56,109 nt of DNA, filler included, from Sphacelaria rigidula (GCA_964200075.2; 5 parts of 5 records of this genome joined end to end with filler, not necessarily neighbours in it); one strand, 5' to 3'. Positions 8,911 to 49,132 are shown, numbered from the whole stretch's first letter. Translations and numbers: made by a program. The notes: generated from the letters alone by a model not told the origin.

Positions 8911-9050
8911 TGCTCCGTCTCGAAAGGGATGCGTGGTCAATGGTCAAACGACTAAGGCAAGCAACAAATGAATAACCCCACACCCCCCACCCCCCCCCCC
9001 CCCCCCCCCCCCCACCCCCCCCCCCCCCCCCCCTCCCTCCCGTCCTACCT
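8911..9050 (+). mobile_element. ~70-bp poly-C-tailed element, copy 1
   Basis: tgctccgtctcgaaagggatgcgtggtcaatggtcaaacgactaaggcaagcaacaaatga followed by a long C tract. Confidence 0.75.
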
Positions 9051-9219
9051 NNNNNNNNNNGGGATGTGTTGTCAATTGTTAAACGTTTAATTCATGTAAC
9101 AAATTAATAACCCCCCCCCCCCACCCCCCCCTTCCCTTCATTTGACACCTGTACACCTGATGTCGGGGATTCTAGGATAATGTCTGGCCAGATTTCCACC
9201 GCCAGATGCAAATCGGTGA

Positions 9220-9487
9220 AGGTTTCACGGCTAGGACGAATCATGACGGGTTCGAATCGCCAAATCCACGATTCCTTCGGCCTGACTGCCCAAGAGGGAG
9301 AAAAAGTTGACCGCTGGTCCAAGGGGTATCCGCGCAACTTTCGCGCCATTCCACGTGTCTGGGCTGTGTGTACCTGGATTGCAACGCTGAAAACAAAGCG
9401 TAGGGATTGATTCGTACGATTCGAGTCATTTACACTAAAACCAAGTCATTTCCAGACGAATCATTGGATTTGTCCGACCCTTGAAAG
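9220..9487. mobile_element. MITE family B, inverted copy
   Basis: Reverse complement of 7825-8090. Ends tgtccgacccttgaaa. Confidence 0.75.
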
Positions 9488-9499
9488 GTTTCACACCCT

Positions 9500-9755
9500 G
9501 TACAACTACGACTAACAACTAACTTAGTTAGCTGTTTTTCAACCGACAACCGGCCAGTTGTTCCCAAACAACTAGTTGCGCACGATTCTGAGAGATTAGT
9601 CGTTAGGAAACAACTAGCTGCACACGATTCTGAAGGAGCAGTTGTTTGGAAGCACCTAATTGCGCCCAATTCTGAACAGTTACTTGTTCGGAGACAAATA
9701 GTTGCACACGATTCTGAACAAGTAGTTGTTTTGTGGCACGGGTAGTTGTCAACAT
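9500..9755 (+). repeat. Tandem ~41-bp units (aaacaactagttgcacacgattctgaa...) related to the foldback at 10214-10420
   Basis: Four diverged units are visible between ~9567 and ~9730. Confidence 0.7.
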
Positions 9756-10213
9756 CGTGGAACACTTACAAATAGACCGTTGGCTGAGGTCGAGCTGACG
9801 AATGAACATGTGAGCACCCCTCGCACTCACACACAAACACACACGAGAGACTAAGCGCAGCAAATAGCAGCTGTGCCACTAGCCGCCACTACACCAGCAC
9901 CAGCTGCTCTTACACCATCACCAGCAGCAGATGGTGACCGGCAAACGTATTTGTGTTTCGCTGCCGGAGGGGAACCGTGGTTGATCAAGCCAGTTGGAGG
10001 TGATGCATACATGAAATAGCAGTAAAGCCTAACCTTGAACGTGTAATGCTCGCGCCCCGAATGACGTATGCCTTTGCTTTGCATCGCACCGCATACCTCT
10101 GTATTTCCCTTTTCAGGAACAGGCCGGTCTGATCTTTCTGGCCTACTCCCTGTCCTGCATAGATACGAGTTCACACCACTACTGTACAGCGTTTTCATGT
10201 TTCCAACTATAAC

Positions 10214-10420
10214 CAACTAAAGTTAGTTCTTTGTCGACCAACTACCGGGTTGTTGTTTGGAAACAACTAGTCGCGAACGATTCTGAACAGATAGTTGCTA
10301 ACTGTTCAGAATCGTGTGCAACTAGTTGTTTCCAAAGAAAAAACTGTTCAAAATCGTGCGTAACTAGTTGTTTCGAAACAACTACCAGGTAGTTGGTCGA
10401 CAAAAAACTAACTTTAGTCG
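10214..10420. mobile_element. Foldback element / MITE, almost entirely palindromic
   Basis: caactaaagttagttctttgtcgaccaactacc pairs with ggtagttggtcgacaaaaaactaactttagtcg. Internal arms are built from the same unit as 9500-9755. Confidence 0.8.
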
Positions 10421-10429
10421 ATGGTGGTG

Positions 10430-11143
10430 GTTGTTGTTGTTGTTGTTGTTGTTGTTGCTGTTGTTGTTGTTGTTGTTGTCTTCACATTAAAAATCGTTCC
10501 GATATCTGCGCGGTACATTCGTACTGGGCATCTGATGCCGACGCCTTCCGTGGTCACAGGCTAGCAAAAAAACAAAAAACAAATTAGTCCGAGATTAAAA
10601 CTCACAAAACGCGATACCCCCAAACAGGGATAAATAACAAAGAAGAAAGATAGTACAAATGACTAACCTCAGAAGATCCGGTGCCGCAGGTGGCCATTCG
10701 GACTTGAGGGGGTGGCACCCGACTTTCCAACTCGACGCGCGATCCCAAGTAGAAATGAACACAGGGTCCGACTACGGGCGAGACTCAAGGCCCCAAATAC
10801 CTCCAACCAAAAAACTAAGAATCGCAAGGTTCCATCTTTCCGTCTCTCGAGAGACAGCCATACGTACAAGCATACCAGGTGTATCAAGGCAAGCACTGCA
10901 TGACATAACGACACCCCTCATCGGGGGGGTTCATCCCCCAACCCTCCTTCTCTGGACCGTCGCCATTGCTGTGCTATTTGGGCTTCGTTAGTCTCCCGTC
11001 TAATCGTACGCAGTCGGCTGGCCTCCTCTTCATTTCTGTGCCATGAGGTCATGAACCTCTCCGCTCCCTGCAGCACTCCCGCGTGCCACGGCAACCCCCC
11101 CTCCTTATTTGCTGCTGAGGTCCATAGGGCGCGGTCAGTTCCG
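10430..11143 (-). mobile_element. RTE-like LINE 3' end with (CAA)n tail, cut by the scaffold end
   Basis: Reverse complement aligns with ~39570-40289. The (TTG)n tract at 10430-10478 is the tail. Confidence 0.85.
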
Positions 11144-11243
11144 NNNNNNNNNNNNNNNNNNNNNNNNNNNNNNNNNNNNNNNNNNNNTTAATTAATTAAN
11201 NNNNNNNNNNNNNNNNNNNNNNNNNNNNNNNNNNNNNNNNNNN
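11144..11243. other. Artificial scaffold spacer (44 N + TTAATTAATTAA + 44 N)
   Basis: Identical 100-bp spacer at four positions ~11242 bp apart. The linker has stops in all six frames. Confidence 0.97.
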
Positions 11244-11350
11244 GGGGGGCGTACTCATTTGTTGCTTGCCTTAGTCATTTGACCATTGACCACGCATCCC
11301 TTTCGAGACGGAGCATTCGTTGCTCGCCTCAGTCGTTTGACCATTGACCA
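11244..11350 (-). mobile_element. Poly-C-tailed element, copy 2, with a partial tandem copy at its 5' side
   Basis: Reverse complement of the 70-bp unit (11244-11316), preceded on the minus strand by ggtcaatggtcaaacgactgaggcgagcaacgaa (11317-11350). Confidence 0.75.
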
Positions 11351-24387: not shown

Positions 24388-27300
24388 CTCTCTAACCTCG
24401 ATCTTGCGGCGGGCGAAGAACCCATGAACCGGAAAACGGGGGTCCGCATTGTTTGCTACCAGCTTACGCACTTCCACGTTCGCGTTACAGCAGGTATGGT
24501 TGAACAGTGCGGCTACGCCCCGGTACCTGAGTTCAGCAGCAGCAAGCAGCGAGCAGAAACGATGCGATTTTCGGTCATGTCGGGGAAAATGGCGTTACGA
24601 TTGGTTTTGCATTTCCCGCCCAAAGTACGAATATCGAACTTCCTCATACGGTACAAGTCATTGTCTATTTCGGTGCTAGTATTTCCATCCACAGACCCAA
24701 GAAAACCAGTACAGGTCACGCCGTCATTGTCCACTTTCCATCGCATGGTTCAAATAGTGGCCATAAGATTCAGATCCTTTGAGTGCTTCACAGTCTCAAG
24801 TGCTGCCAGCGTGTGCGCAGCACGCCTCTTTCGCTCTGGATTGGCGCTCTAGGGCGCCGATTTGGGAGCTCTGTCACACGCACACTTCGCCAAGCACCGT
24901 GTGCACCACCTCCCTTGCCCGAGGGTTTATGCCTCGTGTGTCAAGGGTAGCGTTAGGGTTAGCTTAAGGGTTGGGGTTGGGGCAAGGGTTGAGGATAGGG
25001 TCAGGGTTAAGTTCCAGGTTACAGTTTAAAGTTAGGGTTAAGGTGGAGGTTCTGATTCTGATTCTGGTTCTGGTTCGGGTCAACAATATCCAGAAGAGGA
25101 TAGTCAACTATGGATATTTGATCATCTATTCGCATGCGCTACTGTTTCTGCTACCTCTTCGTCACTTCGTTGGTAACCTTCATGGGTTTCGAACGTGCTT
25201 GAGACAAAAGTTGCTGTCTTCCGGGTAGAAGACTCCTGTGCCTTATGTCGAGGGCAAAACTCCAGCCTACGGTATTTATTCATTTTATGCGTCTGTACTT
25301 GCTTTGGGGGGGCAGGAGACGGACACTGTACGATACTACAGTGTTTATACTCTCCCACACAGTAATGAATCGGGACGCAACCATTTCTCAGTTTTTGCGT
25401 TGCTCAGTAGCCTCGTTGAGCTTCCACTGTAATACTGCCGGCCATGTGACTACTACAAAAACAATATTAGCCCACCTCATCAAGGCAGGAGCTTGCCAAA
25501 CATGTTCTTCTCCTCGAGGACACTTCGATGGAGTTCATCAGTGCACAGCGCATCAACATTTCCAGACATGTACACACACAGTCACTTTCCCGCACAAATA
25601 CTTCGCGACTTCGCCAACCTCTCTCCAACACGTGACTGTGATTTCAATCCTTGGTTTGCTTCACTCTTCTAGTCCTTAACCCCTATCCCGTGGGAGAAGG
25701 CAGGCACTGCGGGGGGGAAACCACTCTCGAGTGTGCGATGCAATACGGTGTACACGAAACCACGCGTACGTGTGGTAGTATATGACACACGAAAGCGGCC
25801 ACTACAGGGGGTAAGTGTCCCTGGTGCCATACACTATGACGTACACGATAAGATACCGCCCCTACGAATAACACCCGCGAGCAATAAAACTTTCAAGGGT
25901 CGGACGAATTAATGATTCGTCTGGAAATAACTTGATAGTGTAGTTGATTCGTACCGTACGAACCGATCTTTGGACTTTGTTTTCAGGGGTGCAACCCAGG
26001 TACGCGCAGCCCAGGCACGTGCAATGGCGCAAAAAATGCGTGGAGACCTTCTTGACCGGCGGTCGACTTTTTTTTCTCTTCCAAGTAATCAGGCCTACGA
26101 AATAGTGGATTTGGTGATTCGAGCTGGCGATAATTCGTCCGAACCGTGTCTATATTGCCCTCATATTCCTATCTACGGTACTGTATAGGGGTACGTCGGA
26201 TATAGTACCTCAAGTTCAAAGTAGCACGGATTGTTCTGTTTTTTTCCTCGCGTACTACTCTTCGATAGGACTCGAAAGTGCTACTAATAGCGTCGGTAAA
26301 TGTTGGTACAATAAACAGATCGTCCTCAAAACATAGTGCCCAAGTGAGGGTTGATTGGTGTAAGCGGGCGATACGAGTAGATACCCCGTATATCAGGAGG
26401 GTGTTATCGATCGTGAATCCCAATTTCTCGGCTCTGGTGCAATGAATAGGTGGAATTGAAAAAAAAACCAGGTGTTTTTCACTTCTTCACATATACGATC
26501 CGGACAGGCTCGATCGACCGAAAATACCGAAGAGCGAGAATCTGGGGCTGAAAAGTGGTAGGACCCCCGATGACTGGTCAGTTCGTAAGCCACTTATTAT
26601 TGAACACACATGATTTTTTTTCTCAGAATGTGGAGCGGATATTAGTATATTCAGATTCCCAATCTGATGAGCGGTGGCTAGCAAAAGAACCTAAAAAATC
26701 GCCAATCATATTTTACGAAAAAATCACCACATATCCTACTTTGAAACTTGAGGTACTGTACCTCAATGACACCCATGAATAATGACTTCCGGGATCCCAA
26801 TATTTCATCACTCGGGGGTCATATACGCCACATTCTACAATGGGTGGCGGTCTACATCACCGATACGTAGCACATCCCCTACACCCCCCCGAAAATCTCC
26901 CTCGGGTGGCAAGATTTCGGCTGTCTTTGGCGCGATGCCGACATAGACAGCACTGTAAAGGGCCATGTGGATGTAGTGCAGCACCTACTCCCGTAAATAA
27001 CCCCGCCAGCTGATAATTTTGGCAGGGTTGTGTTCCCAAGAAAAAATATACGTCATCCTGCAATATTTATGCGGTCGACAGGTCTGCGTTTTGTAGTTGG
27101 CGTACTAGTGTGGCGTGTGGTCAGCTCTTCTGTTCCGGGGGACGGGACGGGGTCATCGGTCGGTTCGGTCCACTAGAGGTGACAATATATACTGAAACAA
27201 AAAAATCCCACCGTACAGTAGCAAACCTAAGAACTGTAAAACGGTAGTCACAGACACTTTTCAACACCCCTCTCTTTGACCCTCTGTCATTCGAACTACA

Positions 27301-30300: not shown

Positions 30301-30479
30301 GATGAAATTCAGATTTCAATTTTTCACTTTACAGGGAAAAAAAAAATATATATATATATATATGTATGAACCAAAGAAAATAACGAATACCCGACAAAAG
30401 ATCAACCAGCTCTTTTCTTTCTATACGCGTCTACTCTATCGCCCAAGTCTCGTACAAAGTATTGTTACTACTAGTGTGG

Positions 30480-30510
<31 letters not shown>

Positions 30511-31985: not shown

Positions 31986-32022
<37 letters not shown>

Positions 32023-33418: not shown

Positions 33419-33543
33419 TTGAACTCCTCCTCGTCCTCGGGACGAGTCCGTGGTCTCAAGGGATCAACCCATCTCTCCCCAGTATGCTCCGTTTCGAAAG
33501 GGATGCGTGGTCAATGGTCAAACGACTAGGGCAACAAATAAAT

Positions 33544-33587
<44 letters not shown>

Positions 33588-33590
33588 ACC
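33419..33590. mobile_element. SINE A 3' portion (minus) joined to poly-C-tailed element copy 3 (plus)
   Basis: SINE A body ...ggtctcaagggatcaacccatctctcccc, then agta, then tgctccgtttcgaaagggatgcg...aaatac(C)n. Confidence 0.75.
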
Positions 33591-33627
33591 CGACAGGACC
33601 CCCGACCACTCAGCACACCACCACCAC

Positions 33628-33727
33628 NNNNNNNNNNNNNNNNNNNNNNNNNNNNNNNNNNNNNNNNNNNNTTAATTAATTAANNNNNNNNNNNNNNNNN
33701 NNNNNNNNNNNNNNNNNNNNNNNNNNN
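33628..33727. other. Artificial scaffold spacer
   Basis: 44 N + TTAATTAATTAA + 44 N. Confidence 0.97.
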
Positions 33728-34046
33728 CTGCTCTTGTGAAAGCTCAACGACTCGGGACCGCAGCGCGTGTGGCTCCACACTTCGAGTTGATCACTGAGAC
33801 TACACTACAGCATTCAGACCTAGGTGAGAGCTGTTGGCGTGTACAAGGCATATTCCCAATACCACAACATCACGCCGGGAGCACGCAACATGCTCTCCAT
33901 ACTCTGCATCCAGAGCATAGAGCAGCCCCTGTCTATTGCTTACGGCTGTCCAAGCAGTGTTGCGTACCCTCCGCCCCGCACAGTATGAATACGCACCATC
34001 GCTGCCCCTTTTTCCTCATGAAACAACATGAGCGACAGAAGATCGA

Positions 34047-34373
34047 CCACGGGTGTCCATTTGCTAAATAATTCGATTGCAGCATTATTTTCTTGAAAAT
34101 CCCGATCAGGTTCACATATCGACTCGCGCGGGTGCTCAAAAGGCCAATATAGGAAATACGTGTAGAGTTCAAAGGGATCCGTGTTTCATGGCCTCGCTTA
34201 TCTTGTGTTTGGCTATACATATATATGCCTTTGAAACAGCGTCAAAATGAAGCTGCGAAAAGAGGCATACCCGAGAAAAATGAAACTACTGAAAAGGCGC
34301 ACCCGACGAAAATGAAGCTGCTGAGAAGGCATATACCCGAGGAAAATAGAATTGCTGAAGGGACACACCCGTG
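34047..34373. mobile_element. Probable MITE with four subterminal ~32-bp tandem repeats
   Basis: ccacgggtgt / acacccgtgg termini. aaaatgaagctgctgaaaaggcatacccgag-like units at 34245-34373. Confidence 0.5.
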
Positions 34374-34640
34374 GAGTTCACTCGCCTGCGAGACGCGCTC
34401 GCGGAGTAAATGTTGGTTTGTGTTTCCTTCTTCCGTCAAGAAAAAAACGAAAACGTAAAATTCCGACAAGCGACATCGATCCGTGCTCGAGTAACCTCGA
34501 GACGTTCTTTGTTTCTGCGTCCCTCGATCACCAAGGTGAGGCATTTACGTCCAGAGCCGCATCTCGAGTTCAACTCCCCATCCAACGAACCACCCGCCCT
34601 GCCAGGCAGCTCGAGAGATACTCCATCGATTGATTGCCTG

Positions 34641-34847
34641 TAATACGTGGGAAGATCGCGTGCCTAAGGGACCGCATCGGAATTCAAACATCCCCATGGT
34701 TGGAATTGGAGTAAGGGTTGGTGTTGGGATTAGGATTAGGGGTGTGGTCCTTGCATGGACTGGCCCAACTGGTGGTGAACAACGTCGATCATGACGTGGT
34801 TTCAACTACGATGCGACCCTGTAAGCACGCGGTCCTCCCGCGCATTA
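34641..34847. mobile_element. MITE with ~38-bp TIRs, TA ends and an internal telomere-like tract
   Basis: taatacgtgggaagatcgcgtgcctaagggaccgcatcg / cgatgcgaccctgtaagcacgcggtcctcccgcgcatta, with internal gggttggtgttgggattaggattaggg. Confidence 0.65.
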
Positions 34848-36007
34848 GTCTCTCCTACAGTTACGGGTCGGAGCGGAGAACCTTATGTTGTAAATATTGG
34901 TGGCTCGTGGCGTTTGGTACTGTTCTCGAAACAGACCGACTACTGTCGCGGAGACAGTAGTTTAGCAAAGGTTGCACAGTGGTAGTCAAACCACTTGCTT
35001 CTGCAGCAGACAGAAAGTCCGCAGACAAAAATGATGTTTGGAGCTCTTCACTTCGGCCGAACAAAATCAAGGCAGTCTCTTCTTAAAGCAGAGAGCTGAA
35101 GGTAGTGGAGGAGAGCTGGGTAAGCTTGGTAAGCTTGGGAGAGTGATTGCAAGGGCGATAGACCACCGCTTACAACCATGCTCCATCCTGGAAGAAGAAT
35201 CCAACACTCTACACGTACGTAAGGTCTAATCGTATCATTCAGTTCAACCTCGCTATTGCTGACGCGGTAGCCTTGCTAGCTTAGATTAACTGCGAAGTTG
35301 CACACAAGATATCCTGTAGCTTACGTGGCCTAAATACTCTGCTAGAGTATCTTTCCTTGACAAATCATGGCAACACGCCTACTGTAGCAGTGTCCTACCT
35401 GAAACGTCATTCACACAGGTATACTATAAATCAAAACAAAAGAGGTACTCTCTGTGAAAAGGACCCCAATGAAACGGTCTGACGTGGTTCGTTGTTTCCT
35501 TGAAACGCAACAGGTTGTACCGCTATCTTTTGTTGCAACAATTCTATTCAAACATAATGAATATAGACTACATCGTCTAGATTTTTCCAACACCTCCCCG
35601 TGAATGAGACATGTTGCTACCAAAAGTAGTAGTGTACTCAACGCACTAAGTATAGTAGTGAGTAATGCAGTCAGACGAAAAAATACAACGTACAAAACTG
35701 TTGTACCATTCCTCGTTTTATACGGTACTGTCATGTTTTCGACAAATGCCAGCAGTCCAAACAAATTAGACCTGAAAAATTCCACCCGCGTGCACACGTA
35801 TGTGTGTGCGATTTTCGCATAGGCATCAAATTTCATGAGCCCTGTAGAAACAAATTCCTTGAACGTGTTTTTAGAAAGAACGAAAAATAACAGTATGCAA
35901 CACATCATCCCGAAAATTTTGTGAACCGTACAGTCACATGCGGCATCAGATGCCCTATATTTTGTTCTGCTGTTGTTTGACTGTGTCCTCACGCTGTCGT
36001 TGATCAC

Positions 36008-36080
36008 GGCTGGTGTGCCCAAATATATATATACCGAAAAGCGTAGACCGGCGTCCAGAATTGATGGGACGACAACACAT
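36008..36080 (+). mobile_element. SINE family B 3' fragment
   Basis: ggctggtgtgccc...ataccgaaaagcgtagaccggcgtccagaattgatgggacgacaacac. Confidence 0.65.
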
Positions 36081-37299
36081 ACCCTTTGAAATTAACGAAT
36101 CGAACATCGTCCCCACAAAATATCAAGTCGCAAGGTTGCTACTTGACGCGAGAAGAGTTGAACCACAGAGGTCACTGCATGCACTTGTGTTTTATCCAGC
36201 TCATGTCCCCTGGAATTGGTTTGGCATATCACATATGCCCTCAATAAAGGCAAAATAAACCATGTACAGAAAACGTTTTACGCAACACATACATGCGGTT
36301 TACTGTACTGTCCTGCAATGCACGACAATCATACGGTGTGCACAGGTATTTATCACCTGATTACCCAAAACCAATCATGCCTACCAACATCTACGTAAAA
36401 TAGCAAGCAAAACAAAAACATATTACACACTTTACTGGTGTGTCCTCGCTGTGTTACATTTTTCTCTCCAACGCTTGTGGGCGGAATTGTGACATAGCTA
36501 CTGCATGCTCGACTTCAAAACATACGGGGGTAGTGCGGAATCGAAAACTTCTGTAAAAAGGTTGATGAACAAATTCACCCGTGTACGGTACAATACTCGC
36601 GGTAGACTATTTTCAAATAAGACAAGGTCCTGCATACAGACCAGTGCAGTAATATAAACACAGTACCCAAACTTCAAATCAATTACCACGCTTGCCAACG
36701 ATGCGCTACGCTGTACAGTACAACCGATCAATTTTTCCTCGAATAATTTTCTCGGAGAATTCCTGGTACTGGGTACAGTCAAATAAAGGATATACGTACC
36801 ACGTAATAGATAGCCTCATGCACCGGGTGCGTTGTCGGGGGAAGTTGTAGGCCTGTCGTGGCCAGTTGAGACCAGATATCTTTTATATAATTAGTGTACC
36901 CATATTTGCCTACTCTCATATATCACACATATGCTGAAACCACCATCGAATTAGATCCGACACATAATGCCGCACACCAACTCACGAACACATACCGAAA
37001 CCACTGAATGAAGTGGGGTACTAATACCTGGGAAAAACGCTCATACAATGACATGTCACAATCCCAGATTTTCGGCACGCGAAAAGGCGTGTGCCGCCCC
37101 AGCAGATATGCACTACAACCACTACATAGGGTATACCTTAAATAACAGAATGATCTCTTATTCGTATTTCCCCTGCACGTCATGATCCAATCTCCATATC
37201 TATTTCCTTCGTATCCAGGCAGATCCTGGAGCGTAAGTATGTCGATTACCCCGGTGACCGCCTGGTCCACAACCGCCCAGTACGAACCACATCGAAGTA

Positions 37300-40242
37300 G
37301 CGGCAATTCAGTCGACATCAGCTGCAGACCGAAATGGTAAAGTGGCACGTGACCGAGAGATTCCTACATAAGCTCGGCGAGCAACAATACTAGCCAATCA
37401 CCACTGCACCGGTGGCCGCGAAGGAGTTTACCGAAGCTATCCGCGAAGCAGCGCGGACAGTGCTCCCAGAAGAGGCACGTATACCACGTACGCCGGAATG
37501 GTGTGGAAACACCGACACGAGAACAACAGTGGACGCAGCGCTTGCCAAACGACGGGAGGCACGCCGACTGATGAAGGATTACCGGACCCCAGCATCGTGG
37601 AAAGCACTCAAAGCCGCGTGCAAGAGCGTGAGTACAGCAATAGCCGACGGCATCCATGCACATCTTGAGATCTATGTGGCAAGGCTAGAAGTGATCTACA
37701 AGGATCGCGACATGAGAGGCCTGTACAAACACCTCAAGAGATGGTGGGTCTTGGTGGAAGGCAATCCGGGGGGCAGCAGTTCATGAAGGACGAGAACGGC
37801 ATCCTACTGAGGAACACAATTGCCATCCTTGAACGATTGGCGAGGTTCTTCCGCACCCTGATCAACGCCAAATCGCTCACGCTGAACCGAGCCATCATCG
37901 AGGAGGTGAAGCAGCGACCGGCAGCTTCAACCACCGGTGATTCGGTACCGCTTGGGGCAGCACCAACACTGAAGGAAACCAGACGAGCAGCCCGGGGGAT
38001 GCACAACTGAGAAGCGCCAGGACACGACTCCCTTTCTGTGGAGCTGCTCAAGATCGACGGCCGCGCCGAACCCGTCGTCCTCGAACGCTTCCATACCATT
38101 CTCGTCGAGGTGTGGAACGGAGAGGAGGTCCCTCAGGGGTGGAAAGATGCAACGATCAAGGTGCTATACAAGAAATCGGACCGGTTTATCCGCAATAACT
38201 GCAGGGGGATTTCTCTGGCATCGCACGCAGGGAAAGTGCTCCTGAACATAGTGGTCAACCGTCTCAGCGACTACAGCAAAACGCACGGGATATTAGCGGA
38301 GGAAGAGTGCGGCTTCCGACATGACCGATCCACTGTCGACATGCTGTTCGTAGTGCGCCGACTCCAAGAGCTGGGACGGCGACGGAGAATACCGCTGTAC
38401 ATGTGCTTGGTCGAGCCCCAGAAGGCATATGACTCAGTCGACTGAAAGTTTCTGTGGCAGGTACTGGCCCAAGCTAGTATTTCGGATGAGATGATAGCAG
38501 TTTTCCGCCAATTCCACGACGGTATGCCGGCCCGCGTGCGCATGGACGACGGGGAGCTCTTGGAATGGTTTGAAGTCACACAGGGACTGCGACAAGGATG
38601 TGCGTTGTCTCCCCTGTTGTCCAACATCTTCTTCGCGACTGTGCTTGAGATAGTCCTCGTCCGATTCAGCGAGGACAGTATCATCATCAGGGACATGATA
38701 TATCTTGATGAGGGAGGGGGGCGGAGACACCGCTGGAACGTGTACACGGAGCGGTGTGGGGAATGTTGTATGCCGATGATGCCGGCGTCATCTCGAGATC
38801 CTCCGACGGACTGGCGAGAATGATGACCACCATAGTGGACGAATTCGGGGCCTTTGGACTGACCGTGTCGGAGGAGGATACGGATACTCTCTTGATGCGT
38901 GTACCGAGGGAAGCACCGTAGGAGGGGGAGTCACCAACACAATCTCCCCCGCCGCTGATGATCGAATCAACGGGCCAGAAATACGCCCAGAACGGTAGTT
39001 TCCAATACTTGGACCGGCTTGTCAACGAAGAGGGCGAACTTAAGCAAGGAATCAACAATCGGAGCAGAGCAGCGTCGGCGTGCATCAAGAAGTTCTCTCG
39101 GGAGCTCTTTGACCGACCGAAAGCATCGTGGAGACTCAAGGTCTGACTGTTGAAAGCGGAGGCGATGAAGGCCCTACTATACGGATGCATGACGCGAGCC
39201 CCGCGCCGCGAACGCTACGACTCGCTGAGAAAGGTACACAACCGGCTCCTCCTGCGAATCATCGGGTACCGTCAAGTGCGCGGCACATGCTGGCAGAATT
39301 CGTATGCTCAGACCCTCAAGAAGAATGGATGCCAAAGTGCCGAATCTATCATCCGGCAACGATGACTGCTGTTCGCGGGAGCCCTGACTAGACAACCGGA
39401 CGGACGACTACCGAAGCGAATGGAATTCGGAACACTAAACAGGGGGGGAAGATCCAGGATCAGGGTGTCCGGAGCAAAACTGGCTGAAGTGCCCGGGGGG
39501 CGATCTCCACGCTTTCGGAGCCACAGACGGATGTACGGACGGCAACCGCCAGACATTTGGGATTGACGGTGTCCTTTGGCCCTCAGCAGCGAACAAGGAG
39601 GGGGGTTGCCGTGGCACGCGGGAGTGCTGCAGGGAGCGGAGAGGGTCATGACCTCATGACACAGAAATGAAGAGGAGGCCAGCCGACTGCGTGCAATTGG
39701 ACGGGACACCAACGAAGCCAACACAGCAGTGATGACGATCCATAGAGGGGGGGGGGTGGGGGGTGAACCCCTCCCGATGAGGGGTGTCGTTATGTCATGC
39801 GGTGCTTGGCTTGATATGCCTGGTATGCTTGTACGTATGGCTGTCCCTCGAGAGGTCGAAAAAAAGAACCTTGCGATTGTTAGTTTTTTGGTTGGCGGTC
39901 TTCGGGCCTTGAGTTTCGCCCGTAGTTGGACCGTCTGTTCATTTCTACTTGGCCTCGCGCGTCGAGTTGGAAAGCCGTGCTCACCCTCTGAAGTCCGAAT
40001 GGCCACCTGCGGCACCGGGGTTTCTGAGGTTAGCTGTATTTTTCTCTTTATTTTTCAGTGTTTATTCCTGTTTTGCTTGTATCGCGCTTGTGAGCTTTCC
40101 TGAGTCTATTTTCGTTTATTCTGGTTTTGTTTGGTTTCCTCATCCCTTATTATGGGTAGCAAGCCTGTGACCACGGAAGGCGTCCACATCTGATGCCCAG
40201 TACGAATGTACTGCGCAGATATCGGAGCGGTTTTCTATATGA

Positions 40243-40289
<47 letters not shown>
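37300..40289 (+). mobile_element. Non-LTR retrotransposon (RTE-like LINE), 5'-truncated, with frameshifts and stops, (CAA)n tail
   Basis: RT motifs [68 protein letters not shown] and YADD (38769-38780). C-terminal LLYGC...LLRIIG. Tail at 40244-40289. Confidence 0.93.
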
Positions 40290-40339
40290 GGATGTCGACG
40301 TGTAGCGGTAAGCACACGGTAGTGATAGAGGCAAAGAAA

Positions 40340-40698
40340 AGCGCACACGGAATGAAAAAATGGCTAAGTTGAAGCAAATTATCAAAGGCACTCTCAATCA
40401 ACGTTCTACTCTCAATGTTACGAACACGTTGTTCAAAGCGGTATACGACAAGTCGTACATCGCCCTCGCCATCAAGGTTCGTCTCCAGAAAATTGAAGTG
40501 ATCGAGGTAAGGTTGTACGGCTGCGTGAGCTGGATGATCATTCGCGAGAAATTCGGCGTGTTACGGGAGCCCCAGCCAGGATTCCTGGTGAGGCGCGTCA
40601 AAAAAATAACTCAAGCCGCGGCGCCCCTGACTACCCTATGCTGCCATGCCATGAGGCCCTCGAACGAACTAGCTGCGAGTTCTGACGAAAGTACGGCG
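40340..40698 (+). mobile_element. Older, degraded RTE-like LINE C-terminal fragment
   Basis: KVRLQKIEVIEVRLYGCVSW...LRE resembles the LKAEAMKALLYGCMTR...LRK segment of the adjacent LINE. Confidence 0.55.
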
Positions 40699-41057
40699 TG
40701 ACGTTGAGTTGGTAGTGATGATCTGGATAATGACTGGGGTTAGGAGGATTCCGGAGGATTTTGGGAGGATTCTGGATAATGACCGGGACACGGGGATGAT
40801 ATCCGGCGTGTCTAGAAGGATGGTGCCTGGCAGAGCACTCCTGATAAGACGAGATGTTGTAAAGGCTGACAACTGAAACTGAGGCCAGTGAGACTGGGGA
40901 GTCCCTCAATAGCAGTGATCCACCAGTCCTTCTTCTGGCTGGCCTCAAAATATCGATATTAGTGCTAGTATCAATGCTAAAAATAGTACCTAGCAAAACC
41001 TTCTGGGAGGACTTCGGCGGAAGAGTTTTGCGGCTGGGGACAACCTGAAGCATCACA
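40699..41057 (+). repeat. Putative 5' LTR of the Gypsy element
   Basis: TG...CA-bounded non-coding segment directly upstream of gag. No second LTR is in view to confirm the boundaries. Confidence 0.4.
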
Positions 41058-41261
41058 GACGCGTGGAGAGGGTTCAAGCTGATGGTAGCTGCAAAAAGGC
41101 GACTAATCTGTGATTGATACAGACTAGAGACTTGCTGAGGCTGCGTGCAGCGGGAGTTTCGAGGCTCCTACGACTGTGTGGTGCGGCGACGAAGCAGGGA
41201 AGTGTGCGATTCGCGAAAGTCCGCTGGACTGTGAAACTTTCGCAGGTAGCCGGTTGCAGCT

Positions 41262-43440
41262 ATGGTGACCGGTTCGCGTAGTACGTCCAGCGTGACGCCC
41301 GTGGTTATGCGGGAAGAGTTGCGACCTCCCCAATACGGGTGTAGGTACTCAGAGAGTGCATCTCGCATTTTTTATACGAAGTACATGGAGTACAAAGAGC
41401 GTGTGGAGCACCCTAACGCAGGGGGTGCTGTGCGGCATCAGGTGGTGTCGATTGCCCAACAAGTGCCAACTCATGTGCAGAGAGTGTTTGCTCGTTTGGC
41501 ACAGGATGCGAACACAATTACCCCGCCGCAATTGGTTGCGGCGATCAAAAAGCATACTGGGCATGCGGCGGGCGCCGAGGTGGAGCTGGCCCAAGCGTCC
41601 GCGGGTGTGGCGAAAGCTGTCGCCATTGATTCTAGAGGAAAGACGATGTTGGAGCGGATGGAGCCCGTCCTGTCAATTTTGGAGAAGTACTTCGCAGAGA
41701 ATTCAAAGGTCGAACCGGTATTATCGTTCCCCCGATGGTGAGAACATTCCCGGCCCAGCTGCAGTTATCACTGAGGCTTTGGTGGAGGGGTTGGCGCCGG
41801 AAACATTCAAGCAAGCCGTGCTTGTCAAGTTGCAGCACGAAGATAATTGGAAGGCAGACCCATACCTGGTGTTGGACACTGCCGTGGCCGAGGCCAAGGA
41901 GTGGCGGAAAATAGAGGTGTTCAGCCAGTCGTCCACCTCCTCGCCGAAATCTTTGCACAACCACGGCTTGAAATCGGCCGGCCGCGCCGCGAGTATTACT
42001 TGCCACCGCTGTAGCCAGGTCAGCCATTACGCGCACGATTGCCCAACGTCTCCCGGTGGAGAGTCTGGTCAATCTTTTGCCGCGCACCATCAGCATCGTC
42101 AGCACAAGGACAAAGGACGAGGTAATCAGGTGGCGGCGGCAGATCCTCCGGTGGTGGAGGGTCGCTATCGAGTCCTCAGCAGCAGCAGCAGCAGGGGCAG
42201 CGGCGTCAGCATGGGTCTGGTTCTGGGTCCGGCGCCGCTGGAGGTGCTGCTGCTCCGCAAGGGGCGATGCAGGTGGGACCGACTTCTACAGTGTCGAACA
42301 CTGCGCCGGTGCCGGTGGTGGCGCCGGTGGCGACACCGGCAGCAGCTCCAGGGGCGACGCCTGCTGATGCGCTGGTCGGAAGTTCACCATATTCTTAGTC
42401 TGCTGGCTGCGGGTCATACCCGCCGGCGGTGCCGTTTGAACCTGCCGGGGCGTCTTCGCTTGCGCAGCCGTGGCATCAAATGGAATTAGCGACGCATCGG
42501 TCGACAGATGATCTGCCAGTGGAGTTTGCGGACAGAGACGTTCCTGCGGAGCTGCGTCTTCCAAATCAACGGGAGCGTAGAGCCATGGTGGTTCGGGCTG
42601 TATTGGATTCTGGCTCCCACTTCACGAGTCTGTCGGGGCAGAAGATGGTAGAGATGTTGGGGAGTCTTCTCCTGGGTGTGCAGCTGCGCATCTCGTTTCC
42701 GCTCGGGGCGGCCGACCGTCACCGCGTCGGGTCAGCATGTTTCCGTCACGGAGCGCACTGTTCCGCTGCAGCTGGCATTCACGACTACCTGGGGGCCGGC
42801 GCCGTTGCCTCCGATCTCGTTTGCGATCATGCCGGGATCGGATGGTGTTATCCCCCTGGGGTTAACGACGCTTCAGGATGTTGGAGTCGACCAGCATGAG
42901 CGGTTGAAGAACCCCATCAACACGCGGGTGTCGCCGCCTGGTTCGCACGTGGAGACGCCCGCCGTTTTGGGCAGTAGTCGCGTGGGATGCTTTTCAGGAG
43001 GTTGGGGGGCAGGTCACTGACGAGTGGGATGCGGCAGTGGATCGCTTGGTAGAGCGCGGCCCGGAGATGTTCATGGATCCGGCGGAAGAAGAGTCCGCTC
43101 GGAAGGTCGCGCTGGAGGAGAGCATGACAGATGTTGTGGCGACAGATCTCAGCGTCCCCACAGCGGGACGCCTGCGCACATTATTGCATCGCCGTGCCAA
43201 CGGATTTCGTCGTGCGGTGCGAGGTGATCCCCCTGCGCGTGTGGAGCCCATGCGTGTTCAGCTGAAACCTGGGGCGTTCGCGGCGAAGGCGAAGCCGCGG
43301 TGGTAAGACTCGGTGAAGTCGAGCTGGTTGGCGTCGTGCATGGCGGCTCTACTGGCGCTTGGGTTGGTAGAACCTGCAGGCGGTATGGTCCACTTCGGCG
43401 ATGGCGGTTCCCAAGAAAGACTCGTTTCGCCTGGTAAGCA
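41262..43440 (+). mobile_element. Ty3/Gypsy LTR retrotransposon gag-pro-(RT start), degenerate and 3'-truncated
   Basis: Gag from ATG 41262 with a frameshift at ~41730. Zinc knuckle CHRCSQVSHYAHDC (42001-42042). Aspartic protease AVLDSG (~42598-42614). Pre-RT/RT start GDPPARVEPMRVQLKPG...AMAVPKKDSFRLV follows protease directly (Gypsy order). Confidence 0.88.
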
Positions 43441-44868
43441 TGACAAAGTATGACAAATGGAACCCAGTCGACTGGAACATGACCAATAAATCTGTAACAT
43501 CCCCCTAGCCATATTTGTATGGCTACACACAAATTTATCGGAGGGCTGGAAGGGCCAGAACAAAAACAAAACCTGTGCATCATACGCCTGAAAGTAAAAC
43601 GAGAAAAACCTGCTGAATTACAGTACAGGGGAAAACTCGTTGCAGATCTAATGAATAGGTAAACCCTGATTAGCAGGGGAAAACTCCATCCGTTAGGAAA
43701 GGAAAAAAATCTATAACGCCCTTTCCAACGACAGAAACAACAGACAAGTACGGTCGCTGTCGTTTTCCCGAGATCTCAGTTAGACTGGAGAACGATCGGC
43801 TAGTTAGCGTGATCGCGCGTCGACACCCTGGATCAGTTACACTGGATTCTAGGGTAGTGCGGGGCTTAAACCCCGCTAAAAACAACCTTTCCGCGAACTG
43901 ATCAATAGTTACAGGAGTGCAGCTTTTCAGGGGTGCTCTTCTGTAACTACCGACACCTATTCTACTGGAAATAGAGCCCACGCGCCTTGGCTCACACATG
44001 TGCCCATATATTACCAAATAGGAAGCAATCGATAACAAAGCGGCACAAGAAAAAGACAAGGAACACTCGAAATTCATGACTGAAACGTGCGGTAGCAGCA
44101 TTGAATGGTTACATATTCCCTTATTTCACTACCGTATTCCTCTCGCAATGATATCGTATACCACATCACACAGCAGCCATTCGTACACGTCCATGGCTGC
44201 AGTCTATCTTTGGCTCCTCCGTTCTAGCTTGGGGCGCTCAACTTCCAAGCGAGATGGCTGTTTCCAGTCTCCATCTTCGTATCCTACTCGCCGAAAGAAA
44301 TTCCCATCATCATACAAGTGGTTCTTCAGCTCGGCACTGCTGTAGCCGTTCCAGGAGGTAGCACCTATGGCAAAAGCTTCAAGGCATCACTACGTGGGGA
44401 AGCGGGGTGCTTCGAGTGCTATGGCGGGGTCGAAGAAACTGTGGGGTGATACAGGTGCAAAAGGCTCATGACGCAGTATGGAGCAATGGGTTGTGGGAAA
44501 ATATATAAGGAACTGTGATTAAAGGAAAGGTGTGGACGACTAAGACGAAAGAAATGTGCCAAAAGTGCGACGGTGCTAGACAGGGAAATATCGAAATATT
44601 TTTGATATTTTGGAAGGAGTCGCACCAGGATGTACGTTATCACCCTCTCTAACCGAGGTATTCTTCGATGACCTGATACAAGCAACAATGTTTTCGTGAG
44701 ATTGAGAGTAGATGATACGATTGAGAGTAGGCTTTGGATGGCTATCAGCGGCGGGGAGTGTCTGCATCATTAATGGACAAAACGCTTACCTCGCACATTG
44801 GTGCAAAATCCTGCCGGTAAATCCAACAGTGTTTCCGTGAAATCGAGCGTTGAAAGTACGATCGAGAG

Positions 44869-44968
44869 NNNNNNNNNNNNNNNNNNNNNNNNNNNNNNNN
44901 NNNNNNNNNNNNTTAATTAATTAANNNNNNNNNNNNNNNNNNNNNNNNNNNNNNNNNNNNNNNNNNNN
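44869..44968. other. Artificial scaffold spacer
   Basis: 44 N + TTAATTAATTAA + 44 N. Confidence 0.97.
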
Positions 44969-45038
44969 GGGATGCGTGGTCAATGGTCAAACGACTAAGG
45001 CAAGCAACAAATGAGTACGCCCCCCCCCCCTCCCCCCC
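44969..45038 (+). mobile_element. Poly-C-tailed element, copy 4 (5' end cut by the scaffold start)
   Basis: ggatgcgtggtcaatggtcaaacgactaaggcaagcaacaaatgagtacg(C)n. Confidence 0.75.
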
Positions 45039-45325
45039 GTCCCAGTCGTCAAGCTGGTACCGTATATCATCGGCCAGCTTGGGTTGAGCAGTAATCGTGC
45101 AAAGGTGCGCTGGGTAACGTGTATGCCCAGGTGTTTTCCCTCCCGAATTTCGTGTTGCGATGGTCCGATCTCCAAACTCTACCTAATACTGGGTGAAGTT
45201 AGGTACGATAGTGATACTCTAACCGGATTCTTGGTGCTTAGAGTACGATTTTTCAAGATACCCTGATGTGGGCAAAACCCTACCCAAAATATTCTTGCAA
45301 TAGTGGATCCGAATCTCGATACTAT

Positions 45326-45685
45326 AGCCTGTCGCCCTCGTGGCTCATTTGGTAAACCTCGAAACCTTTCGACGGTTGTGTCGTGGGGTCGAATCTCGCT
45401 GCAGTCACACGATCTGTGATGTTTCTCACACACTGCCCAACAGTGGAGAGCGACTATGTCATGGGTACACAAAAGTTCGACTTCACGGTCGACGAGGAAA
45501 CGGGATAGCTGAACCCCTCTCGCGATCAAAAATAAACGCAAGCACCGCAAAAGGAAGGTGTAGTACTGAAACCATAGAAGAGAACTCCTGTGTTGGCCTT
45601 CTTCCTGTGTGACCCCGGCTGATGCGCCCACATATACCGAAAGGTGTAGACTGGCGTCCAGAATGGATGGGATGACAACACAAAA
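45326..45685 (+). mobile_element. tRNA-derived SINE family B, near full length
   Basis: Head with box A-like TGGCTCATTTGG and box B-like GGTCGAATCT. Three other copies or fragments occur in the window. Ends gacaacac. Confidence 0.8.
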
Positions 45686-47191
45686 AGAGTAAGTGTATTC
45701 TATTTCAGCCCGTTTCGTCAAGGAAAGCCTGCGAGAGCTTGGGTTTACGGAAAGAAAAATCGAAAGAAGAAAGGGTAAGAAGAAGCGGAAGGAGAAAGTC
45801 CACGGGGGTTGTGGCAGTGCGGATAGTCATCGTCCAATGCGGCTTGGCGATAAGTAGTTGTTCGAGGTGGGTGCGTTGCGAGTGAAGAAGACATGGAACG
45901 GTTGATTTCTCGAGACGACGGGCTCGTACCGAATCGTTCAGAGGGGGTAACAGGGGAGCAAAGCACAGATCTTGGGTTATCTGAACGATTTTTGGCCGCA
46001 CACTGCAACAGGCTGTACCGCAGTATAACCACCTGAATTTTCGACCGTGTGATTGGTCGATGCCTGCTGGTGAAGAAAAATGATTGGCAGCGTTTAGTAC
46101 TTGATTTTATAGTACACGCCGAGTTCGAGGTGTTTAGTGGGTGTTGACAGTACCACGTGCTTCTTAGCTTTTGCGCAAAACGCGTTTTTGTGTAAATTGG
46201 CGGCTGCAGCGACGATCTGAGGTCTGCCAGCGGACACTTCGCCCAGGGCACACTTCGCATCCCCGCTTGCCGTAGGGTCCTCGGAATACCTCGGGTTGGG
46301 GTTAGAGTTTGGTTATTCCGAAATAATACATTTCCGAGAAAGTTGTTCAACCATTGTTTATGTTCATTGTACGACAAACGCGTAAGCATGGCTCAGAAAA
46401 AAATGGCCGCGAGTGTACGCCAGTATTTTCTTCGTCTTCTCCGGAACCTTTTTTTTGTGAACGTGCTGATCGTGTACCTGTTTGGTGTGTGGCGCATTTC
46501 AAGGAACTGCAAAAGCGACTGTTTGAAAGCAACGATGGCCGTACACTTGCGAGCTCTTCCCAGAAGGGATATTCGTTTTGAACGTACATGCGCTGCGATC
46601 TCCAAACGAAGTCTGACTTGGGCGTGTGGAGGGCTCAGAATGAACGTACCCAGCGTGAGTAAAAGAAGACACGCACTTGAGACAAACTTGAGAAAGCGAG
46701 AAATAATCAGGGAATCAGAGAGCAAACAAAGCAAACTGGAGAAGAGGAAACACAACGAGAAAGGAGAAGGGCAGGGGAATATATATGTTCACGAACATCA
46801 TTCTATCACTATTATTCTCATGAACATTAGTCTCATCTCTCGAACCCGTGGTCACAGCACATTCATAATAATTAAAAAAAAAATGAAGATGAAAAGAGAT
46901 TATAGAATAAATGAATGGCAAGGAAAATTAAAAAGAAAAAAACGACGAAGAGATGATGAACGGAAGAATGATGTTCATATTTACAAGGATCGGACGGGGC
47001 CGCCGATAGGCGGCCCCGTCCTCCACGATAGGCGTGGAAAGGGATTGATTTAGTTGGGGAGATGGTAAAGGCAATGACTTCTACCAAGAGGTTCAGCCAA
47101 AGATTGGATATTACCTGTATCGGTTATGAAACCAGGTTATACGTCATACGTAGAAGATGGAAGATCCGGCACGGGCGTAATGTTTGCAGTA

Positions 47192-47511
47192 GACCTAAGG
47201 AAATGTACGTAAACAATGGTTAGTACTCGATTTTACTTGATTTCAGGCTCAAGAAAGTTCTGAGAATATTCATGGTCTGGGGCAGGTGAGCAGTGGTGAG
47301 TAGTAGACCCAGCTTGTCCAGAACGTGTCTTGGTCTAAAATTAGCTGGAAGGCGTCGATATCAGCTCTGGCAACGCGCACTTTGCCTAGGGAACACTCTG
47401 CACCCCCTTGCCTCAGGGTTCTCGGTATGCCTTGGTCGGGGTTAGGGTTAGCGTTAGAATTGGCGGCATCTCCATTGTACCAACCACTGTTTACGCACAT
47501 TTCCTCAGGTC
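47192..47511. mobile_element. MITE family A, copy 2
   Basis: TIRs gacctaaggaaatgtacgtaaacaatggt / accactgtttacgcacatttcctcaggtc. Internal ggggttagggttagcgttag. Confidence 0.8.
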
Positions 47512-47557
47512 GCCTCAAAGTCTGATCCGTTCGTTCGCGCATTTTTTTTCCCTTTTC

Positions 47558-49132
47558 AGGGCTTGTCTTAGTCAGGCCAACTGTAATGGTAGCCGTTCGA
47601 GAAACCTGTTTAAAACTGCCTTTTGGGCCCTTCTCCGTCGATTTACGCTCGAAAAAAGGGCTAGATGCATGTTGACGCCTTGGAATGACTTGCTCTACTC
47701 GTTGAGACCGTTTTAGGTCAACTTTGCATTTCCCGCTGGCCGCACTTCTATTTTTGGCCAAATGAGGCCACACACGGATCTTCAGTGAAAAACGGTCAGG
47801 TGATCAAATTTTTCCCCTGTTGGTTGATCGCTTGACCGTCTTTTGTTGAACATCCGTGTTTGGCCATTAATGAAAGTGCGACCAGCGGGAGATCCGAAGT
47901 TGCCCTGAAACGGCCTCAATGAGTAGAGCAAGTCATTCCAAGGCGTCAATATCCGCCTAGCCCTCTGTTCAGGCGAAAAACGACGGAGAAGGGCCAAATA
48001 GGCAGTTTTGAACAGAATTTTTGAACGGCTACCATTTTTTTCTTTTTCCTCATACTTTGAACCCCTCTCCTTCCTCGGGATGAGTCCGTGGTCTCAAGGA
48101 AATCAACCCGTCTCTCTATTAGGAGTAGGAACGGTGTTCCGTCTCGAAAGGGATGCGTGGTCAATGGTCAAATGACTAAGGCAAGCAACAAATGAGTACG
48201 CCCCCGGTACGCGCCTTTATTCATTTTGGCCTCGCGGATTGGGTCAGCACTCCCGCACCGCGTCGACTCAGGTCACACAAACCTAGTCGACTACTTTATT
48301 TTCTCACGGTCTCACGCTTTCCACGGTGGAAATCATACATGACGAAGAAAAAATGCAACGCATCGGAAATCGAACACCCGCTCTCTCCACCCCCGAGGCG
48401 ATAGTCGGACCATTACACCACCGGGGCGCGGCACCATTAGAGTCGGTCTTGGCCAAAAAGGCAGTTTAAAACAGGAATTTCGAACGGCGCCCATTAGAGT
48501 TGGTCTTAGACCGACTCTAGTAGAGCAAGGCATTCCAAGGCGTCAACATCCGCCAACTTTTCGGGCGTAAATCGACGGAGAAGGACCCAAAAGGCAGTTT
48601 TCCACAGAAATATTGAACGGCTCTCATTAGAGTTGGCCTAAGACCGACTCTAATGGGAGCCGTTCAAAATTCTTGATTAAAACTGCCTTTTTGGCCCTTC
48701 TCCGTCGTTTTTCGCCTGAAAGAGGGCTAGGCGGGTATTGAACCCTTGGAATGACCTGCTCTACTCATTGAAGCCGTTCCAGGGCAACTTTTGCATTTCC
48801 CGCTTGCCGCACTTTCATTTTTGGCCTAACACGGATTTTCAACGAAAAACGGTCGAGCGATCAATAAAAAGGGGGGAAATTTTGATCACCTGACCGTTTT
48901 ATACTGAAAATTCGTGTTTGGCCTGGTTTGGCCAAAAACAAAAAACGGCCAGCGGGGAATGGAAAAGTTGCCCTATAATAGAACGGTCTCGACGAGTAGA
49001 GCAAGTCATTCCAAAGTGTCAACATCCGCCTAGCCGTCTTTTCGGGCGTAAATCGACGGAGAAGGGCCCGAAAGGCAGTTTTAAACAGGAATTTTGAACG
49101 GCTTCCCGCAAAGTTGGTCTAAGACACGCCCT
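47558..49132. mobile_element. Compound foldback element, family C (two palindromic modules), interrupted by SINE A
   Basis: Termini agggcttgtcttag / ctaagacacgccct. Modules 47575-48036 and 48640-49120 are each ~220-bp-arm inverted repeats. Partial arms at 48433-48640. Confidence 0.75.
48037..48432 (-). mobile_element. SINE family A, full-length copy with A-rich tail and TSD, containing poly-C element copy 5
   Basis: TSD ACCATT at 48031-48036 and 48433-48438. T-rich run at ~48037-48047 is the A tail. tRNA-like head at 48358-48432. Insert at ~48118-48205. Confidence 0.85.

Follow-up and report, generated by a model that had tools for sequence, protein, structure and literature searches.

What are the short C-tailed repeats that recur along a 56,109-base stretch of the Sphacelaria rigidula assembly (GCA_964200075.2)? 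The stretch, referred to here as the window, consists of five small scaffolds joined by N44-TTAATTAATTAA-N44 linkers, has three short N gaps within the scaffolds, and is rich in repeats and poor in genes. Distributed through it are copies of a unit of about 70 bp, which a first-pass annotation made from the sequence alone had described as an element whose mode could not be assigned to a known class. Mobile and non-autonomous it is, as that annotation proposed, but a class can be named: the unit is very probably the 3′ terminus, the last 70 to 95 bases, of an autonomous long interspersed nuclear element (LINE) with an apurinic/apyrimidinic (AP)-type endonuclease and a reverse transcriptase (RT), copied by target-primed reverse transcription (TPRT). 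The LINE is otherwise of an ordinary type, and what sets it apart is a poly-C tail where poly(A) would be usual, together with its landing in C runs.

A 23-nt core of the unit is found five times without mismatch (at 8926, 33500, 44969 and 48150, and at 11278 on the minus strand; 0.00 expected, 100 shuffles), and the 5′ motif TGYTCCGTYTCGAAAGGGATGCG four times (8911, 33485 and 48135, and 11315 on the minus strand; 0.00 expected in shuffles). The five copies, located as first described, have blastn E-values from 1e-36 to 3e-15, and each of them enters a C tract, as had been reported: C5 at 48201, at least C6 reaching the scaffold end at 11244, C11-T-C7 at 45020, C43 at 33545 and C24-A-C19 at 8990. 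To these can be added further copies at 9061–9131 and, on the minus strand, 11314–11350, together with diverged tails at 6176–6233 and 23801–23860. Three of the four complete copies have their 5′ end at TGCTCCG. The fourth, which carries the motif too and had been counted as an intact 5′ end at 48135, really begins at about 48112 and is a longer copy, and what had been taken for filler at 48118 (tattaggagtaggaacgg) is the LINE sequence that precedes the unit.

The annotation had itself allowed that the unit might be the terminus of a longer transposable element, and two database loci carry it in that position. Scanning metagenome contigs with the unit core returned a single locus, L001, in which the unit closes an open frame of 514 amino acids (aa) with an RVT_1 domain (E 7.7e-14); the frame ends in ...GAPSRKGCVVNGQMTKASNK, and its TGA stop lies inside the unit, followed by the five bases GTACG and then C8. 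Among the 64 loci returned from contigs of bacterial and archaeal genomes the unit is carried by one, L047, a 5259-bp contig holding a full-length element. Here the unit ends an intact open reading frame (ORF) of 1359 aa with endonuclease domains (Exo_endo_phos at residues 170–392, E 7.9e-11; Exo_endo_phos_2, E 1.4e-7) and a reverse transcriptase domain (RVT_1, residues 740–989, E 6.7e-32), and the element terminates in GAGTACG and C13. The two loci come from independent assemblies and are 96.5% identical over 1559 nt, which counters the possibility that they are chimeric.

Window copies match L047 at 100% (11244–11315), 98% (44969–45030 and 48110–48205), 92% (8910–8988, tail included) and 87% (33485–33559); they begin at LINE positions 5062, 5086–5087 or 5110, and all end at the tail. 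The unit thus consists of the last 19 codons of the ORF in frame (...APSRKGCVVNGQMTKASNK), the TGA stop, GTACG and a (C)n tail, and although the unit taken alone has no ORF, as first noted, it is in-frame coding sequence of one. Consistent with this, unit copies translate in frame to the C terminus of related proteins (tblastn). The 48112 copy, made up of 23 nt of upstream LINE sequence, a 66-nt unit and C5, translates to the last 27 residues of one of these proteins, P0002, with 89% identity; its alignment to L047 reaches 25 nt beyond the other copies on the upstream side, within LINE sequence.

The search found 13 related proteins, three of them named from Ectocarpus sp. CCAP 1310/34. The closest, 1328–1360 aa long, share both the domains and the C-terminal peptide (P0002, 1360 aa, 87%), and for P0002 and P0003, which share the terminal peptide of the LINE, the precomputed Pfam families are also the same. 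A ...VVNG... peptide near the C terminus is kept even in relatives at 32–36% identity, which may be explained if the 3′ module is both coding sequence and a likely recognition signal. The nearest solved structures are those of human L1 ORF2p (8c8j, 8uw3 and 8sxt; E about 2e-21), and look-alikes in the Atlas are generic endonuclease and RT clusters only; the PDB, Pfam and Atlas matches do not tell one LINE clade from another. The element therefore has the anatomy by which LINEs are recognized: an RT domain in a long ORF, an N-terminal AP-type endonuclease, a shared 3′ end with 5′ truncation, target-site duplications (TSDs) of variable length, and neither long terminal repeats nor terminal inverted repeats.

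Sixty-two of the 64 bacterial and archaeal loci are chance matches of the core to codons of GcpE/IspG (motif MGC(V/A/E)VNGPGE) and not homologues; L006, one of the 62, was tested with Pfam and is GcpE/IspG. In the 62 the flanks read as this motif, and its codons coincide, at the nucleotide level, with the LINE core 20-mer that encodes part of ...GCVVNG.... L042 is an unrelated locus without the unit, and viral contigs scanned for the core gave no matches. The L047 contig, a eukaryotic, brown-alga-like LINE with flanking repeats, is filed under a bacterial metagenome-assembled genome, a case of binning contamination.

Two other classes can be set aside for the unit. The tRNA-, 5S- or 7SL-type RNA polymerase III head of a short interspersed nuclear element (SINE) is absent, as had been noted: ARAGORN finds no tRNA gene and Rfam, at gathering score, no match anywhere in the window, and the unit is ORF coding sequence. 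The SINE feature that is present is a 3′ tail common to a partner LINE, the unit being that tail, 87–100% identical to L047. A miniature inverted-repeat or other DNA transposon is excluded in that the ends, TGCTCCG... and ...GTACG(C)n, are not inverted repeats and the TSDs, at 0 to about 20 bp, are not of fixed length.

How the copies entered their sites can be read at three loci, of which two lie in SINE A. This repeat is represented by four minus-strand copies. A tRNA-like head, not called by ARAGORN, lies to the right, and to the left is a T run, the complement of a poly(A) tail. Its site CTCT/CCCCCGGTAC is uninterrupted in two of the four, the copies first described as empty at 8088 and 13893, and interrupted exactly there in the other two. 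In the 48112 insertion the 5′ junction has a 4-nt microhomology, TCTC, a TSD is lacking, and the 'tail' amounts to the C5 that the target already had. At 33485 four target Cs are kept upstream (a TSD of about 4 C, at 33478), the unit is preceded by four extra bases, AGTA, and carries an internal deletion near its end, and C43 follows, after which the sequence stops matching SINE A. Because 5′ junction, tail and unit variant all differ, the two insertions are independent hits on the same C5 run.

The third locus is the two-unit array at 8911, which supplies the clear TSD that the first-pass annotation had missed. Its 18–22 bp duplication starts in a C run, and the uninterrupted paralogue of the host repeat in L047 contains the duplicated sequence once. 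Three extra bases, GTG (8908–8910), lie between the 5′ TSD copy and the unit; the second unit has lost its 5′ part in the N10 gap. Across the three loci the TSDs measure 0, about 4 and about 20 bp, the 5′ junctions show microhomology or a few added bases, and the tail merges with a complementary run in the target; such is the anatomy of TPRT. The proposal that the unit inserts at, and on the simplest reading is primed from, G/C tracts is borne out to the extent that both SINE A hits fall on the C5 run and the TSD begins in a C run.

Some observations attach to these loci. The host of the 8911 insertion is a dispersed repeat (8704–8907 and 9122–9233 on the minus strand; 7824–8092 against 9488–9221; 25886–26148), a paralogue of which is found in L047, about 440 nt ahead of the LINE ORF. 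Around the SINE A at 48058 is an inverted repeat of about 480 bp and 84% identity (47558–48036 against 49132–48652), with partial copies at 48451–48652 and 18697–19080. SINE A being A-tailed, A-tailed and C-tailed retroposons coexist in this genome. Within the degenerate unit, almost every difference of 9061–9110 from the consensus replaces a G or C by a T or A, with G-to-T transversions among them. This stretch adjoins both a long C run and the N10 gap, and may represent an old copy, a subfamily that has diverged, or low-quality sequence following the homopolymer. The bases directly after the longest C runs (33588–33627 and 9034–9050) are C/A-rich and match neither SINE A nor the expected flank; probably the base calls are unreliable here, or the homopolymer caused a mis-join. 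No resemblance is seen between the partial unit at 11314–11350 and the LINE bases that precede the unit. Finally, 52153–52177 reads GGAGTACG followed by C6-ACG-C9. This may be chance, or a tail-only LINE remnant reduced to about 8 nt.

Table 1. Positions of the C-tailed copies, their hosts and related features in the window.
Feature	Position	Strand	Details
LINE 3′ end copy, ~94–96 nt, antisense in SINE A	48112..48205	+	97.9% to L047 LINE positions 5062–5157
Unit from TGCTCCG, long C24-A-C19 tail reaching N10 gap	8911..9050	+	
Degenerate second unit, 76–82% identity, C12-A-C8 tail	9061..9131	+	head-to-tail behind 8911 unit
Unit from TGCTCCG, C tail into scaffold end	11244..11316	-	100% to L047 over 72 nt
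Partial unit (unit positions 24–60, 89% identity)	11314..11350	-	directly upstream of 11316 unit
Unit from TGCTCCG and C43, antisense in SINE A at C run	33485..33587	+	87% over 79 nt
Unit, 5′ side cut by scaffold start, C11-T-C7 tail	44969..45038	+	98.4% to L047
SINE A, empty at C5 site	8086..8382	-	
SINE A, empty at C5 site, internal N8 gap	13893..14141	-	
SINE A, 3′ part up to insertion site	33420..33484	-	
SINE A, interrupted at 48117–48201 by LINE tail	48058..48432	-	
TSD 5′ copy, CCACCCC-TTCCCTTCATT	8890..8907	+	alignment to 3′ flank and to uninterrupted L047 paralogue
TSD 3′ copy, CCA-C8-TTCCCTTCATT	9121..9142	+	C run merged with element tail
~510-bp non-autonomous repeat, ends GAGTACA and C6-T-C4	5726..6239	+	only last 64–75 nt homologous to LINE tail
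Second ~510-bp copy, ends CAGTACA and C5-GT-C4	23358..23864	+	71% to first
Diverged LINE RT fragment	37669..38694	+	25–30% to P0002–P0010 family; tblastn E 3e-27 to 6e-31
LINE RT fragment near scaffold end	44440..44684	+	tblastn; 70% nucleotide identity to L047
Linkers	11144–11243, 22386–22485, 33628–33727, 44869–44968		

Pfam finds no family in the 17 searched of 42 ORFs of at least 150 aa, and the homologues of one 397-aa ORF are six unnamed proteins.

These junctions suggest how copies would be made. A nick made by the endonuclease in a G run of the bottom strand would expose a 3′ end able to pair with the C tail of the RNA and so to prime cDNA synthesis. In L1, a T run at the nick pairs with the poly(A) tail, and the scheme is drawn by analogy with it. 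Such pairing would account for two SINE A copies having been hit independently at C5, and for tails that merge with target Cs. Most copies would hold only the terminal module of about 68 nt, with TGCTCCG as the strongly preferred 5′ end. Long C tails would probably grow by RT slippage, and they break short-read and Sanger assemblies; that they interrupt this assembly, as had been suspected, is seen at or beside the gaps and scaffold ends at 9051, 11243, 33628 and 44969, and at 12527 for the second family described below.

Contigs of public sequencing runs extend the picture beyond the window. Five runs from two studies share 27–72% of the words of positions 45040–55000; all are contigs, on record as DNA or unknown, and four of them (X1, X2, X4 and X5, given in this order below) were aligned to 47000–49500. 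Identical LINE bodies collapse in de Bruijn contigs and contig counts are not copy numbers; nor is the summed depth of the bin that holds the unit, which reaches 6.5, 5.4, 2.2 and 0.7 million against 1e3–5e5 in most other bins. A C run continues beyond 48205 in 1241, 1222, 901 and 268 contigs. Upstream, the LINE continues beyond 48113 in 531, 545, 424 and 184 contigs, and in 462, 508, 382 and 137 the sequence before 48138 reads ...(C)n-TGC, so that the unit starts at TGCTCCG, often right behind another C run. Position 48137 is C in nearly all contigs, and the consensus start is therefore TGCTCCG. In X4 and X5, where the weakest listed position has 35 and 49 contigs, no other 5′ end is stronger and TGCTCCG dominates, provided that positions not listed are weaker still. 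The preference for one 5′ end that was first proposed is thus seen in the window and in hundreds of contigs of four runs.

Joints that go back 68 nt, from 48205 to 48138, occur in 48, 60, 26 and 11 contigs, with minor variants to 48134, 48139 and 48141; these are head-to-tail arrays of the form unit-(C)n-unit. Such arrays would probably arise when a copy enters an older C tail, when the RT jumps to another C-tailed RNA as template, or in both ways. Empty SINE A is common in the same runs (244, 264, 224 and 87 loose ends reading ...CTCTCCCCCGGTAC), with a T run of at least 20 before 48054 in all four. Joints that skip from 48098/9 to 48222 come from paralogous SINE A copies, and among the listed contigs none spans the stretch at 48117.

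Bearing on the preferred 5′ end is another repeat of the window, a non-autonomous sequence of about 510 bp whose diverged tails (6176–6233 and 23801–23860) are homologous to that of the LINE. The copy at 5726–6239 has no RT match, and Rfam at E up to 1 finds no match in 5400–6500; a degenerate tail of the same repeat lies at about 54500–54566. Only its last 64 nt match the LINE (blastn), from about CGGTG-CTCCG onward in the alignment, and an internally deleted LINE is thereby rejected. The homology begins within about 5 nt of the unit's TGCTCCG start, and this coincidence makes the unit the probable RNA module for recognition by the RT; a 3′ module common to a LINE and a non-autonomous partner is the classical signature of 'stringent' recognition (PMC3747384).

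Several observations weigh against this account. No TSD could be identified around the full-length copy of L047, where no shared word exceeds 8 nt. Priming from G runs would be the simplest reading of the junctions at the three resolved loci and is drawn from them by inference only. The last 156 nt of the LINE fold no better than shuffled sequence, with a z of 0.13, 110 of 200 shuffles folding as well or better, and the consensus fold of four tails, few as these sequences are, is weak (-4.4 kcal/mol, 8 pairs). Rfam on L001 at E up to 10 returned two chance-level hits elsewhere and no ribozyme family at the boundary. Three window copies start at TGC with no C run directly upstream, and simple C/G microhomology at the 5′ junction is therefore insufficient to explain the start. 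The ratio of unit-only to longer copies is unreadable from contigs, because identical LINE bodies collapse. Two candidate origins of the 5′ end were rejected: a known ribozyme (HDV-like or hammerhead), for which Rfam gives no match at or beside the boundary, although a ribozyme of a new type may act there, and a fossil second module upstream of TGCTCCG in the LINE, where local alignment scores 13, while shuffles average 13.2 and 1087 of 2000 do at least as well.

Of the competing explanations the one that survives best concerns the template. Here the unit would exist as a separate short RNA, about 68 nt plus a C tail and beginning at the U of UGCUCCG. Master copies or arrays would give rise to it, and the LINE RT would copy it in trans; copies of this 'mini-SINE' would be full-length products of a short template, a refinement of the LINE-terminus reading. 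The sharp 5′ end in the window and the contigs speaks for it, and so does the position of array joints within about 3 nt of that end (48134, 48135, 48139 and 48141). LINE RTs that reach the end of a template are seen to add extra bases and to jump. The extra bases at 8908–8910 and 33481–33484, the jump into an internal site of another unit at 11314–11350, and the arrays fit such behaviour. The 5′ boundary is also roughly that of the module common with the ~510-bp partner, and a 2025 survey of Ectocarpus transposable elements mentions very short, abundant, LINE-dependent non-autonomous families (PMC12477816). On the other hand, the unit lacks a promoter and a tRNA, 5S or 7SL head, the 48112 copy shows that ordinary LINE truncation also happens, and in DNA a discrete short template would look no different from a strong stop of the RT at the edge of a 3′ module bound by protein. 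We regard this refinement as possible, with the balance somewhat against it.

Amplification at the DNA level is a further alternative, in which a satellite or minisatellite monomer derived from the LINE tail would spread by unequal exchange or slippage at C tracts and dispersed units would be by-products. Head-to-tail joints in tens of contigs per run, a consensus of loose ends, hundreds of them, in which C runs immediately precede TGC, and the two-unit array at 8911–9131 would fit it. However, single units occur at unrelated loci with their own junctions, in two SINE A copies and in a TSD-flanked site in another repeat; the units of the 8911 array are about 20% apart and yet lie within one common TSD; and insertion at C runs is unexplained. 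This origin is improbable. A new class of tiny element that targets G/C homopolymers with machinery unrelated to known transposition, suggested by an atypical poly-C tail and by the lack in the unit alone of a complete ORF, terminal inverted repeats and RNA polymerase III boxes, has almost no claim left in view of the 87–100% match to the end of an intact LINE ORF, the in-frame translation to its C terminus and the TPRT-type junctions. An artefact (adapter, vector or chimeric read ends, with C runs as homopolymer miscalls) might be suspected from units at scaffold ends and gaps and from the unreliable-looking sequence past long C runs, but is hardly credible for a C-tailed unit found inside a coherent ORF in two independent assemblies and in four runs from two studies, with TSD and empty-site evidence, the uncertainty extending only to exact C-tract lengths.

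With the unit read as a LINE terminus, its closest described counterparts are in Ectocarpus, where, according to passages of the survey cited above, RTE-X, RTE and CRE LINEs reach thousands of copies and a non-autonomous family of about 600 bp shares its 3′ end with autonomous RTE-X elements (PMC12477816). RTEX-1/2_Ec32 and RTEX-N1_Ec32 are alike in their brown-alga-like host, the combination of endonuclease and RT, frequent 5′ truncation and recent near-identical copies, and the RTE-X pairing is alike in that a non-autonomous repeat of ~510–600 bp shares the 3′ end only (PMC12477816). The ~510-bp repeat may correspond to the ~600-bp RTEX-N1 family, and LINE and partner plausibly belong to the Ectocarpus RTE-X set, given their resemblance to the published pairing. 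The passages of that survey drawn on here make no mention of a (C)n tail, C-run targeting, a 68-nt tail-only unit or head-to-tail arrays (PMC12477816).

A 3′ simple repeat in place of poly(A) is a feature of RTE-X elements, although not exclusive to them, and all copies here have (C)n. Such non-poly(A) repeats are known, in the sections of PMC3747384 used here, for RTEX, RTE, I and L2; green-algal RTEX elements carry (CA)n, (CAA)n, (CCAT)n and others (PMC3747384, Table 3), the I element carries (TAA)n, and UnaL2 shows template slippage on its 3′ repeats (PMC3747384). A single-base C repeat is a variant on this theme. Stringent LINE/SINE pairs resemble the present case in having a 3′ module of about 60–80 nt common to the LINE and a non-autonomous element, ended by a simple-repeat tail, and in that RT slippage can account for variable tail lengths, as proposed here (PMC3747384). 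They differ in that here the repeat is the single base C, the module is coding to within 5 nt of the tail, and no stable stem-loop emerged from the folds.

Mammalian L1 is alike in its AP-type endonuclease and RT, TPRT, 5′ truncation, 5′ microhomology and variable TSDs, and in the pairing of a homopolymer tail with a complementary homopolymer, which for the present element would be the pairing suggested above. In contrast to L1, the element carries a (C)n tail of a kind that polyadenylation by the cell cannot provide, the putative primer is a G run, and there is one ORF, not two; L1 recognizes poly(A), whereas the present element has a 3′ module common with a non-autonomous partner. Head-to-tail arrays of 5′-truncated LINE copies are also formed by Zepp of Chlorella and by HeT-A and TART of Drosophila through repeated insertion at earlier tails, these being poly(A) or oligo(A), with truncation points that vary. 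The present arrays differ in their (C)n tails and one dominant 5′ end. The literature searched held nothing relevant on poly-C-tailed non-LTR retrotransposons or LINEs.

The window contains a second short repeat of about 95 nt, unrelated to the first (12427–12524 and 12575–12687, and also 17719–17790; minus strand), which ends in TTCCACG(G/A)T and a C tail (C12-T-C9, C37 and C8). Two of its copies (12427–12524 and 12575–12687) lie head-to-tail across an N10 gap, and in each of them one frame stays open as far as the C run. The repeat has the look of a tail belonging to another LINE family that ends in C, and C tails are therefore not peculiar to one element. A larger proposal, which we advance tentatively and consider rather doubtful, is that in a brown-algal LINE lineage a C tail and priming at G runs have replaced poly(A) and T-run priming, and that this lineage has given rise to an independent 68-nt retroposon. 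This retroposon, no more than the RT-recognition module and at the same time the last 19 codons of the ORF, would multiply as a short RNA and build arrays by template jumping, with at least one further family of the genome, ending in TTCCACGGT and (C)n, doing likewise.

The identification of the unit as a LINE terminus removes a candidate for a new class of element. It also has consequences for the study of such genomes: C-tailed retroposons explain many of the gaps and scaffold ends in such assemblies, and repeat libraries should include the tail-only unit. For the LINE itself, the 68-nt unit is a minimal candidate RNA substrate for a stringent-type RT, and a C tail that does not come from polyadenylation, whether encoded or produced by slippage or untemplated addition, provides a natural test of complementarity between tail and primer in TPRT. 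Were the proposal of a C-tailed lineage with a free 68-nt retroposon true, C-tailing would be a lineage-wide alternative mode of 3′-end recognition in TPRT and a generator of long C/G homopolymers.

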